Shown here in pieces: positions 17,030-63,172 of a DNA stretch of 64,000 bases. A program made the position numbers and the translations under genes. The notes beneath the pieces were generated by a model. It saw nothing but the letters and a program-made list of their open reading frames with translations, was not told where the DNA came from and ran no database searches. How positions within the stretch are numbered: position 1 is the stretch's first letter; each line of letters opens with the position of its first letter. Where the stretch lies: assembly GCA_947382355.1 (NCBI GenBank), contig CANCYR010000003.1:52139-116138 (forward strand). Direction: 5' to 3'. The DNA is from an uncultured Lachnospiraceae bacterium. Its GTDB lineage: Bacteria; Bacillota; Clostridia; Lachnospirales; Lachnospiraceae.

Positions 17030-17189
17030 TTGCAAGGAGAATATAGCAGTCAGTACCATATAACACTTTGAATATAACAGCTGGGGCTGAACGGTTACAT
17101 CTCCGACAAAAAACAATTTAACCCTATTGACAAAAGGAACGCCTTCCCGTATTCTGAATATAGTATTACAAAGAACAACAATCCCCTAA

Positions 17190-34133: not shown

Positions 34134-34371
34134 GCGTCAGAGGGAGGCGGTATGGCTCTATGGCGGTGCGGTGGTTTGGATGGGGATTTTCCTAAACAGG
34201 CTGGGAAGGGTGTCGGCGCCGGGCGGGTCGGCATGCAGCGCCGTCCGTGGCGCGGCATGCCTAAAATTGCCGTCCATGGCAATTTTACCCTGGGTTGTGG
34301 GCAGCCTGTTAAGGAAAAGCTCCATCCAAACCAATGCACCGCCATAGAGCCATACCGCCTCCCTCTGACGC
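34134..34371. repeat. GC-rich 238-bp palindromic element A (70-nt arms, about 65/70 complementary, 98-bp centre with nested hairpins)
   Basis: The left arm 34134-34203 (GCGTCAGAGGGAGGCGGTATGGCTCTATGGCGGTGC...) is the reverse complement of the right arm 34302-34371. Local GC is far above the surrounding sequence. Confidence 0.9.
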
Positions 34372-43451: not shown

Positions 43452-44243
43452 ATGGAATTTCGGCCGTGTATAGACATACATAATGGAAAAGTAAAACAAA
43501 TTATCGGGGGCTCTCTTTTAGATGAATCGGATTTTGCAAAAGAAAATTTTGTATCCGGTTTTGCTAGCGCCTTTTATGCAAAGCTTTATGAAAAAAAAGG
43601 AATCCGGGGAGGACACGTGATTTTGTTAAACGGCAAAGACAGTCCCTATTATGAAAGCACAAGAGAACAGGCGTTAAGGGCATTGAGCAGCTATCCAATG
43701 GGACTTCAGGCAGGAGGGGGCATTACGCCGGAAAATGCCATGGAGTTTATCCATGCGGGCGCTTCCCATGTAATTGTTACATCTTATGTGTTTCGGGATG
43801 GAAAGGTGGATATAGGGCACCTGAAAAAAATAAGGGATATTGTTTCGCCAGAGCGCCTTGTAATTGATTTAAGCTGTCGGAAAAAGGACGGGAGCTATTT
43901 TATTGTAACAGACAGATGGCAGAAGTTCACCCAAATGGTTTTGTCGGAAGAAACGCTGGATTTCTTTTCGGAATATTGCGATGAATTTCTGGTGCATGCG
44001 GTGGATGTGGAGGGAAAAGCAGAGGGGATTGAAGAAGAAGTGGCAGGCATGTTGGGGGACTGGGGGAAGAAGACCGTTACTTATGCAGGAGGTATCCATA
44101 GCTTTCAGGATTTGGAGCTGCTTGACAAGCTTGGAAAGGGTAAGGTCAATGCTACTATTGGAAGCGCTTTGGATTTATTCGGCGGAAATATGAAGCTGGA
44201 AGAGGTACTTTCCTTTATGGAGGGCAGTAGGAGAGTTTTATAA
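43452..44243 (+). CDS. hisA: HisA/His6-type ProFAR isomerase-like (beta/alpha)8 barrel protein
   Basis: MEFRPCIDIHNGKVKQIIGGSL..., ...FLVHAVDVEGK... and ...TYAGGI... match the His6/HisA-type family. No other his genes lie in the window. Confidence 0.65.
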   Translation: MEFRPCIDIHNGKVKQIIGGSLLDESDFAKENFVSGFASAFYAKLYEKKGIRGGHVILLNGKDSPYYESTREQALRALSSYPMGLQAGGGITPENAMEFIHAGASHVIVTSYVFRDGKVDIGHLKKIRDIVSPERLVIDLSCRKKDGSYFIVTDRWQKFTQMVLSEETLDFFSEYCDEFLVHAVDVEGKAEGIEEEVAGMLGDWGKKTVTYAGGIHSFQDLELLDKLGKGKVNATIGSALDLFGGNMKLEEVLSFMEGSRRVL

Positions 44244-44250
44244 TCGTTAT

Positions 44251-44474
44251 GTAGCAGTTCAGCCCTCAGCTTTCCCACACAGGAGCCGGAACCAGATGCA
44301 GGCAGAAAATGTTTCTACGTCGCCACGCTCTCGCTCTGATAAAAACGCAGCAGTGCTAAGCTCGAAAATACCTCGCTAAGCGCTGGCGTTTTTATAAGGG
44401 CTCCTATAGAAATCATTTTCTGCCTGCATCCGGTTCCGGCTCCTGTGTGGGAAAGCTGAGGGTTGAACTATTAC
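44251..44474. mobile_element. MITE-like palindromic element C (224 bp, 61-nt terminal inverted repeats 57/61 complementary) flanked by the 8-bp direct repeat ATCGTTAT
   Basis: TIRs are 44251-44311 (GTAGCAGTTCAGCCCTCAGCTTTCCCACACAGGAGCCGG...) and 44414-44474. Direct repeats ATCGTTAT lie at 44243-44250 and 44475-44482. The 65-nt core 44331-44395 is identical to 45020-45084. Confidence 0.85.
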
Positions 44475-44486
44475 ATCGTTATAAAG

Positions 44487-44517
44487 AAAAAACCGGTCAA
44501 AATGACCGGTTTTCTTT
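44487..44517. terminator. Bidirectional rho-independent terminator (csp / hisA-like)
   Basis: AAAAAACCGGTCA-AAA-TGACCGGTTTTCTTTT. Confidence 0.85.
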
Positions 44518-44637
44518 TAATCCGTTAAAACAATATTGCTTATTCAAAACTAAATTCAAAATCTACTTTAAAATTTATATTTCAAAAAGGCACATCGAAA
44601 AACTGATTAATGCTTGTAAGGAACTGGGAAACGTTTC

Positions 44638-44838
44638 TTATAACTTTGTAACGTTTACTGCCTGAGGACCTTTTTCACCGTTTACTACTTCATACTCAAC
44701 AGCAGCGCCTTCTTCTAAAGATTTGAAACCTTCCATGTTAAGTCCTGAATAGTGAACGAATACGTCATTACCCTGCTCGTCAGAGATAAATCCGTAACCT
44801 TTTTGGTTGTTAAACCATTTTACTGTACCTTTGTTCAT
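44638..44838 (-). CDS. Cold-shock protein (CspA family, 66 aa)
   Basis: [31 protein letters not shown] carries the RNP1/RNP2 motifs. SD GGAGGTACTAAA upstream. The track ORF 44638..45198 is an artefactual upstream extension through repeat D. Confidence 0.95.
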
Positions 44839-44942
44839 TTTAGTACCTCCAAAAAATAATATCTTGTTGACTTGCAACAAAGCTAGAATATCATAGAAAC
44901 AATGAAAAGTAAAGAAAAATTTTTTGAAAAGTGGATTTGCGG

Positions 44943-45171
44943 GTAACAGTTCAGCCTGCAAATTTGGGGTTTGAGGACGCAGGAGGGACAAGGTAGATAG
45001 AAGTCTTAGTGGCACGCTTTCGCTCTGATAAAAACGCAGCAGTGCTAAGCTCGAAAATACCTCGCTAAGCGCTGGCGTTTTTATCAGAGCGGGAGCGTGC
45101 CCACGAAGACTATTATATGTTCTGCCAGTTTCTACGTCCTCAAATCCAAAACCCCCAGGTTGAACTGTTAC
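44943..45171. mobile_element. MITE-like palindromic element D (229 bp), same family as C
   Basis: Termini are GTAACAGTTCAGCCTG (44943-) and CAGGTTGAACTGTTAC (-45171). The element has a long imperfect palindrome and a central 65-nt core (45020-45084) identical to element C. Confidence 0.85.
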
Positions 45172-45300
45172 GATTCGGAAGAGGGGAAACCTTGACAAAT
45201 GAGGCTGGTTATTGGTTAATATATAAAGTGGGTTTTATGTATTTATGGTGTGGCTGCAACAGGTATTGGAATATGTGTTAAAGGATTTGAGGTATTATTT

Positions 45301-63106: not shown

Positions 63107-63172
63107 GTAGCAATTCAGCCCTCAGATTCCCGTTCCGTTGTCTGTCTGGAAAGCTGAGGGCTGAATTGTTAA
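63107..63172. repeat. Minimal palindromic element E (66 bp) carrying only the terminal inverted repeats of the C/D family
   Basis: GTAGCAATTCAGCCCTCAG ... CTGAGGGCTGAATTGTTAA. The termini match GTAGCAGTTCAGCCCTCAG of element C. Confidence 0.8.

Follow-up and report, generated by a model that had tools for sequence, protein, structure and literature searches.

MITEs, i.e. non-autonomous DNA transposons, have been described in several bacteria, for example as the Correia elements in Neisseria, as RUP in Streptococcus pneumoniae and as MITEAba12 in Acinetobacter. In the majority of these families, conservation is highest at the ends, whereas the middle drifts. Insertion sequences (IS) of the IS66 family, as compiled in ISfinder, have ends starting with GTAA and produce an 8-bp target duplication. 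To this family belongs the ISBst12 group, with ISDge4 of Deinococcus geothermalis as a single-ORF member, which possesses the terminal inverted repeats GTGACTACTCAGCA and GTAACTGCTCAGCA and an 8-bp direct repeat CCTCGATG (PMC12898284). Transposition activity of the ISBst12 group was reported only in 2026 (PMC12898284). The repeat family analysed here is a new representative of a known type, namely of MITEs; a full-text search of the literature for its terminus found no paper.

The window, i.e. the whole stretch of 64,000 nucleotides that was analysed, corresponds to C3:52139-116138 of the genome of an uncultured gut Lachnospiraceae bacterium referred to as G000, a 3.45-Mb assembly of 107 contigs. 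A hisA-like gene of the His_biosynth family (43452-44243, + strand; ORF of 263 amino acids; PF00977, E 3.9e-26) ends there with the TAA stop codon at positions 44241-44243. For the region behind this gene, the initial annotation had proposed a 224-bp element (element C, 44251-44474) with inverted arms of about 61 nt and with ATCGTTAT on both sides, and direct reading of the sequence confirmed the element as well as its flanks. The left copy of the target-site duplication (44243-44250) indeed has the final base of the stop codon as its first position, and the right copy occupies positions 44475-44482.

Element C is a complete copy, which begins with the 14-nt terminus GTAGCAGTTCAGCC (44251-44264, + strand; family consensus GTAACAGTTCAGCC), presumably the end that is recognised by the transposase. 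This terminus is part of the left arm (44251-44311, + strand, 61 nt), which differs between copies and is complementary to the right arm of the same length (44414-44474, - strand), ending in GGTTGAACTATTAC. Enclosed by the arms is a conserved, slightly asymmetric centre of approximately 102 nt (44312-44413, + strand), which contains two GCTAAGC motifs 20 nt apart and reads A-run, hairpin and T-run in either direction. An inverted-repeat search delimited the arms at 44249-44314 and 44411-44476 (66 nt, 92% complementary); this span includes two flank bases that pair by chance and agrees with the 57 complementary positions out of 61 counted before. As a single strand, element C was predicted to fold into one hairpin (-151.6 kcal/mol; z = -18.2 in comparison to shuffled sequences), and the opposite strand is predicted to fold equally well. 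Within the centre, a simple consensus-based scan predicted a terminator-like mini-hairpin in the sense direction of hisA (CGCTAAGCGCTGGCG plus TTTTTATAAG, 44374-44398, + strand; hairpin at 44374-44388). The whole element is placed between the stop codon of the hisA-like gene and a native intrinsic terminator (44489-44523), which is common to this gene and the convergent cold-shock protein gene cspA (44638-44841, - strand; PF00313, E 1.1e-29) and which is kept at the empty sites of relatives.

The terminus of element C had been reported to recur in two further elements, D and E, and this holds true, with six matches in the window versus 0.18 expected. Element D (44943-45171, 229 bp), located in the divergent spacer between cspA and a niaR-like gene, is a sibling copy that belongs to another arm subfamily and has the same centre, of which 41 nt are identical in elements C and D; its duplication has decayed. 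Element E (63107-63172) is a hairpin derivative of 66 bp, in which both termini were kept and the centre was lost. In addition, a solo terminus GTAACCGTTCAGCC (17085-17098, - strand), situated upstream of a T-box leader, is what remains of a decayed copy. Remnants of this solo-terminus type were also seen at sites where another genome, G004, still holds a full copy.

Throughout G000, about 90 copies were counted. The conserved centre occurs 87 times in the 3.45 Mb, 49 copies are complete (217-230 bp, mode 224), and 27 short hairpins (31-163 bp) have both termini and no centre. The consensus terminus GTAACAGTTCAGCC is present in 109 exact copies, and with up to two mismatches in 312 copies, in comparison to approximately 22 expected by chance. 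The copies also left their mark on the assembly: 37 of the 214 contig ends in G000 are located inside copies, and the family accounts in this way for a sixth of the contig breaks of this MAG. A large number of contigs end precisely 55 nt inside a copy, a pattern that marks the interruption of a k = 55 graph by a repeat. Among the assembled copies, identity to the nearest neighbour reaches up to 98.7%, and the most similar copies are probably those that broke the assembly.

Target duplications were counted for the 48 complete copies having both flanks. For this, the 8 nt outside each end were compared, and the next 8 nt outward of the same 48 copies served as control. The flanks matched at all eight positions in 14 copies, at seven positions in 12 and at six positions in 3, while each of these classes was empty in the control, where no match exceeded 5/8. 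A match of at least 7/8 was thus found for 26 of the 48 copies versus 0 of 48 in the shifted control, and the 8-bp duplication first noticed at element C is also present on other members of the family. The flanks of the remaining 19 copies match at no more than five positions and show no clear duplication.

Empty sites, which had been anticipated for related strains, were found in three genomes of the same genus (G003, G001 and G007). Their spacer between hisA and cspA is devoid of the element, and the gene end runs directly into the conserved terminator AAAAAACCGGTCA..TGACCGGTTTT. In the closest species, G004, the element is present at this site with ATCGTTAT on both sides and with its centre inverted in comparison to G000. 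When the flanks of twenty G004 copies were mapped onto G000, a full copy was present in both genomes at seven of the twenty sites, and several more sites end at contig breaks of G000. Two of the twenty sites filled in G004 are empty in G000 and have a single target there (for example, gagg-tagaaaaa-[element]-tgaaaaaa-agagg in G004 versus gaggaagaaaaaagagg in G000). At other sites filled in G004, all that is left in G000 is a hairpin of 64 bp, the 14-nt terminus by itself or the terminus together with 20 nt. From the duplications and from the filled, empty and remnant sites it follows that the family inserts, varies from species to species and is degraded in situ through internal deletions.

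The distribution of the family is narrow. The whole element was found in seven of the eight genomes of the genus, G000 among them, and in 0 of 23 further genera belonging to the family and order. A 26-nt piece of the centre was searched in the genomes of 185,579 species; the matches listed comprise a handful of Lachnospiraceae-type MAGs (MGBC129207, Mgla bins, NALB bins labelled Robinsoniella and an MGBC bin labelled Eisenbergiella) and one contig binned as Muribaculum.

In the alignment of the 49 complete copies the 14-nt ends are conserved, and coding capacity is absent. A peptide encoded in the centre was considered and rejected, because the short frames of 16 and 33 codons are disrupted in many of the 49 copies. 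Like bacterial MITEs, the element is small and non-coding, has terminal inverted repeats and a duplication of fixed length, occurs in many intergenic copies with presence/absence differences, and possesses no transposase gene. Element C is a MITE; every defining feature was found, the partner in relatives only.

The initial annotation had recommended looking for such a partner, i.e. for an autonomous, transposase-encoding element that ends in the same way, and the search yielded single-ORF IS66-family elements of relatives ending in GTAACAGTTCAGCC. In G007, which belongs to the same genus, a 1683-bp contig (L017) encodes a frameshifted IS66-family transposase (PF03050 and DUF6444), the stop codon of which is located 31 nt from an exact GTAACAGTTCAGCC; it is the one copy of the partner transposase found within the genus. 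In G149, a 1729-bp contig (L020) corresponds to one IS with an intact transposase of 487 amino acids (PF03050, 73.5 bits versus a cut-off of 23.1) and terminates with this 14-mer (...GGCTGAACTGTTAC); its left end reads GTAATTTAGCAG and is unlike the MITE terminus. An internally deleted IS of 626 bp in G109 (L028) is bounded on either side by the 21-nt repeat GTAACAGTTCAGCCTTCTAGC and flanked by a perfect duplication of 8 bp, CATGCGTT. G341, a member of another family of the order, contains a 1684-bp IS (L138) with 17-nt repeats GTAACAGTTCAGACGCC and no matching flanks, and the 'GAC' variant of these ends was also found in one MITE subfamily. Finally, an IS of 1815 bp in G073 (L036) shows GTAACT(A/G)TTCAGAACCCC ends and a transposase that is 28% identical. 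The partner transposase matches the NCBIfam model NF033517 ('IS66 family transposase') over its full length with 149.5 bits, which is below the cut-off of 180 bits. Between the Lachnospiraceae transposases and annotated IS66-family proteins, here plasmid relatives from Bacillus, Geobacillus, Deinococcus and cyanobacteria, the identity amounts to no more than 28-30%.

The single-ORF ISs of the relatives (1.7-1.8 kb) have exactly the terminus of the element. Ends beginning with GTAAC.G.TCAGC are common to the element and to the ISBst12 group as represented by ISDge4, where GTAACTGCTCAGCA and GTAACAGTTCAGCC are identical at 11 of 14 positions and the duplication also comprises 8 bp. The element itself reads GTAGC/GTAAC... 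and has the 8-bp duplication of IS66-type ends, and in the 1729-bp IS a DDE_Tnp_IS66-domain transposase (487 amino acids) adjoins the same terminal repeat. On the level of the sequence, the element therefore has the features of an ISBst12-group derivative. Unlike the ISs of this group, it lacks a transposase gene and contains nothing IS-like inside its ends of 14-15 nt, and both of its ends resemble one end of the IS. Since the similarity between MITE and IS is confined to these outer 14-15 nt, the interior of the MITE is not derived from the IS.

In G000, no match to the partner transposase was obtained by tblastn, and the assembly is devoid of long, complete elements that end in this way. 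The ISBst12-type partner was likewise not found in the other copy-rich genomes, G002, G003 and G004. Its absence from G000 is weak evidence, because the smallest contig of this assembly has 2.9 kb, and collapsed IS contigs of 1.7 kb, the approximate size of the contigs carrying the partner ISs in G007 and G149, fall below this size. The missing partner nevertheless leaves a small probability that the MITE is moved by another enzyme, which could be encoded by a canonical three-ORF IS66 or be a transposase not yet seen. The canonical IS66 (C56:17863-20587), located outside the contig of the window, is the sole DDE_Tnp_IS66 match in G000 and the only IS66-family element assembled there; it likewise begins with GTAA and generates a duplication of 8 bp (TTTTTTTC). 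Its ends, GTAAGCGCTTAATA, differ, and only GTAA is common to them and the element, whereas the ISBst12-type ISs match the terminal 14-17 bases of the element fully. As the partner, this IS66 was rejected for its different ends.

Further candidates were discarded as well. In G000, termini form five widely spaced pairs (0.8-5.2 kb), which according to the translations enclose ordinary genes and lack matching flanks. The genes inside these pairs, for example for ABC transporter ATPases, were recognised by their translations rather than by Pfam. A segment of 1843 bp between perfect termini in G003 (G003:C9:256295-258137) turned out to be a MITE copy, the centre of which was hit by an IS4-family IS (PF01609; own repeats AATGCCATTAAGTTAAG; 10-bp duplication GCACTTACGC).

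It is therefore highly probable that element C is a copy of a MITE family of one Lachnospiraceae genus, presumably moved in trans by an IS66-family transposase of the ISBst12 group. Duplications throughout the family, empty sites, the copy number and the same-ended ISs in relatives all support the MITE interpretation given in the initial annotation. A DDE transposase of the ISBst12 group, supplied in trans, would bind the GTAACAGTTCAGCC ends and insert the element by means of cuts that are staggered by 8 bp. Element C would have landed after G003, G001 and G007 had split off and before the split of G000 and G004, and would not have disrupted the hisA-like reading frame. As the assembly lacks a partner IS, element C is now probably stranded. 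The transposition of the ISBst12 group is barely characterised, and the approximately 90 natural substrates show which 14 nt are kept and that 8 bp are duplicated.

In its internal organisation, the family is unlike most MITEs. The middle of approximately 100 nt is almost invariant, whereas 45-50 nt of each arm diverge to about 60% identity; the diverged arms nevertheless stay complementary within a copy. Almost the whole element corresponds to one hairpin. Pairwise identity in the 49-copy alignment amounts to 0.86-0.89 for the termini, 0.60-0.63 for the arms and 0.92 for the centre, in which nearly every column is conserved to 95-100%. A centre with 92% pairwise identity beside arms with 60-63% is not predicted by a plain MITE model and counts against it. 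The near-invariant centre of about 100 nt, the strongly covarying arms and the occurrence of the same centre with a second type of terminus are unusual features.

The arms of a copy form Watson-Crick pairs at 92% of the positions. In the RNAalifold consensus, both sides were changed in 47 of 78 pairs, and 96.7% of the cells are paired. The mismatches between the arms are distributed symmetrically over the strands (63 G.T versus 64 A.C). A transcript would tolerate G.U only, and yet G.T and A.C are equally frequent; the complementarity of the arms is thus kept at the level of DNA and not of RNA. Gene conversion, most likely through repair of heteroduplexes that accompanies recombination between the arms, may copy changes from one arm to the other and would keep the arms complementary in this way.

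At the site between hisA and cspA, the centre of approximately 100 nt in G004 is the reverse complement of that in G000 (94% vs 66% identity). GTAGCAG is located at the left and GTAATAG at the right in both genomes, i.e. the variants of the arms keep their sides. A second site with a flipped centre is C47:2-225, so that two of the seven orthologous sites of G000 and G004 are affected in all. Homologous recombination between the arms of 61 nt probably flips the centre. At these seven sites, the mean identity is 95.9% for the centre, 95.0% for the flanks and 92.8% for the arms. Selection at the host level on the centre of each copy was rejected, as in this small sample of seven sites the centre is no better kept than the flanks. 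Weak as a conclusion from seven sites has to be, the individual inserted centres do not look protected by the host. Judged from these comparisons, it is more likely that the invariance of the centre among paralogues reflects a need of the lineage for spreading, or exchange between copies. The near-invariant centre might accordingly be a cis requirement of the lineages that spread or a homogenised module, and would not be kept by the host site by site.

Like invertons, the family shows a segment between inverted repeats that occurs in both orientations at one chromosomal site. A recombinase might accordingly flip the centre between the arms and thereby switch a promoter or terminator beside hisA or cspA, and the fixed arms around a centre that is inverted here and at one more of the seven shared sites would fit such a switch. 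It is nevertheless very improbable. Unlike in invertons, the flip was seen between species, and neither a promoter nor a dedicated recombinase was found; a simple scan detected no sigma-70-like promoter site within element C. Furthermore, the succession of A-run, hairpin and T-run is nearly symmetric, and either orientation reads alike. Most of the approximately 90 copies are without a plausible target gene, and no significant bias was seen in how the centre is oriented towards the upstream gene (20 co-oriented versus 11). The arms of 61 nt are long enough for general homologous recombination.

That the element is a host-kept, structured non-coding RNA gene or a cis-regulatory RNA, flanked by a repeat only by coincidence, is extremely improbable, since, in spite of the very stable predicted fold and the massive covariation of the arms, the duplications and empty sites show mobility, the mismatches have no strand bias, both strands fold equally well, orthologous centres are kept no better than their flanks, and no known RNA family of Rfam 15 matched the element at gathering scores or even at E <= 1; an RNA gene was rejected on account of the strand symmetry together with the Rfam search.

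For this MITE family, the second terminus type deserves attention. The same centre is also carried by ends reading CACGGAAATCAATTTTCAGAC, which are accompanied by 9-bp duplications (matches of 9/9, 8/9 and 8/9 in three of the four copies in G000), and copies with these ends occur in G000, G002, G003 and others. It is conceivable, albeit rather doubtful, that the centre is a selected, self-contained functional cassette and not filler, likeliest a two-way terminator or a protein-binding site. At least two unrelated transposase systems would have acquired it, one with GTAACAGTTCAGCC ends and 8-bp duplications, the other with CACGGAAATCAATTTTCAGAC ends and 9-bp duplications; it would require long complementary arms of whatever sequence and flip between them. 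If true, the centre would be a regulatory module that is mobile as well as invertible and prefers to settle directly behind stop codons. From the contrast of the invariant centre with the covarying arms, and from the second type of ends, a cis requirement for transposition or a terminator that is portable might come to light.

The genomic setting was taken from a crude ORF map (85% coding) and not from a gene caller. On this map, 46 of the 49 complete copies are intergenic. Where a copy is located between genes of the same direction, it lies nearer to the upstream stop than to the next start in 24 of 31 cases (p approximately 0.002, two-sided binomial); 20 of these 31 copies are within 26 nt of the upstream stop, and five overlap it. 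Stop-proximal copies being common, the position of element C, which follows the stop codon at a distance of 0 nt and directly precedes the native terminator, is typical of the family. Insertions thus survived mostly in the first 25 nt or so behind a stop codon, which points either to a preference of the enzyme for this position or to the purging of insertions closer to promoters.

The intergenic hairpins that stem from the family could pass for RNA genes or operators, and the family also creates spurious ORFs. The remaining 3 of the 49 complete copies coincide in part with frames passing through the element; among these is a clearly spurious frame of 186 amino acids, which extends over cspA and element D (44638-45198).

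Beside the main MITE family, a second MITE type of approximately 236 bp was detected, which shares the conserved centre with that family and resembles it in the arms. It occurs in four copies in the genome under study (G000 C44:23002-23237, C44:25952-26186, C49:16793-17028 and C52:4438-4673, all outside the window) and is also present in G002 and G003, two other genomes of the genus, and in further MAGs. Its ends are CACGGAAATCAATTTTCAGAC, and three of the four G000 copies are flanked by 9-bp duplications (9/9, 8/9 and 8/9). These ends and duplications imply that the second type is moved by a transposase different from that of the main family. No autonomous partner of this type was found.

The sole IS66-family element in the G000 assembly is a complete canonical IS66 outside the window (C56:17863-20587), which has three ORFs (135, 122 and 570 aa), terminates in GTAAGCGCTTAATA and is flanked by an 8-bp duplication (TTTTTTTC). 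One locus in G003 (L018, C9:256295-258137) only resembles an autonomous element bounded by the MITE termini. It is a MITE copy whose centre is interrupted by an IS4-family IS of approximately 1.6 kb, encoding a DDE_Tnp_1 transposase of 438 aa and possessing its own repeats (AATGCCATTAAGTTAAG) and 10-bp duplication (GCACTTACGC).

The copy at G000 C5:30649-30868 shares its insertion site and duplication (GATAAGGC) with a copy in the closest genome, G004 (L050:701-924); the identity between both is only 75-77% in the arms and 88-93% in the flanks. Recombination with another copy may have overwritten one of them, or the site may have been hit twice. In L077 (CAMWWJ010000017.1, SRR14411331_bin.4), the ends of the MITE copy are doubled (GTAACAGTTCAGCCGTAACCGTTCAG ... 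CTGAACGGTTACGGCTGAACGGTTAC), as would be expected from the insertion of one copy at the extreme tip of another. At a contig end outside the window (G000 C64:1-135), a MITE arm is followed by long G-runs (GGGGGGGG...TTTGTGGGG...), which look like a poly-G sequencing artefact joined to the repeat during assembly.

Within the window, a GC-rich palindrome of 238 bp (34134-34371) was rejected as a member of the MITE family, because its ends (GACGCGTCAGAGGGAGG...) differ. On its minus strand, positions 34171-34334 match the TwoAYGGAY RNA of Rfam (RF01731, 95.6 bits). The 186-aa ORF at 44638-45198 (minus strand) is an artefact, namely the 67-aa cold-shock gene (44638-44841) extended upstream through the MITE copy designated element D.
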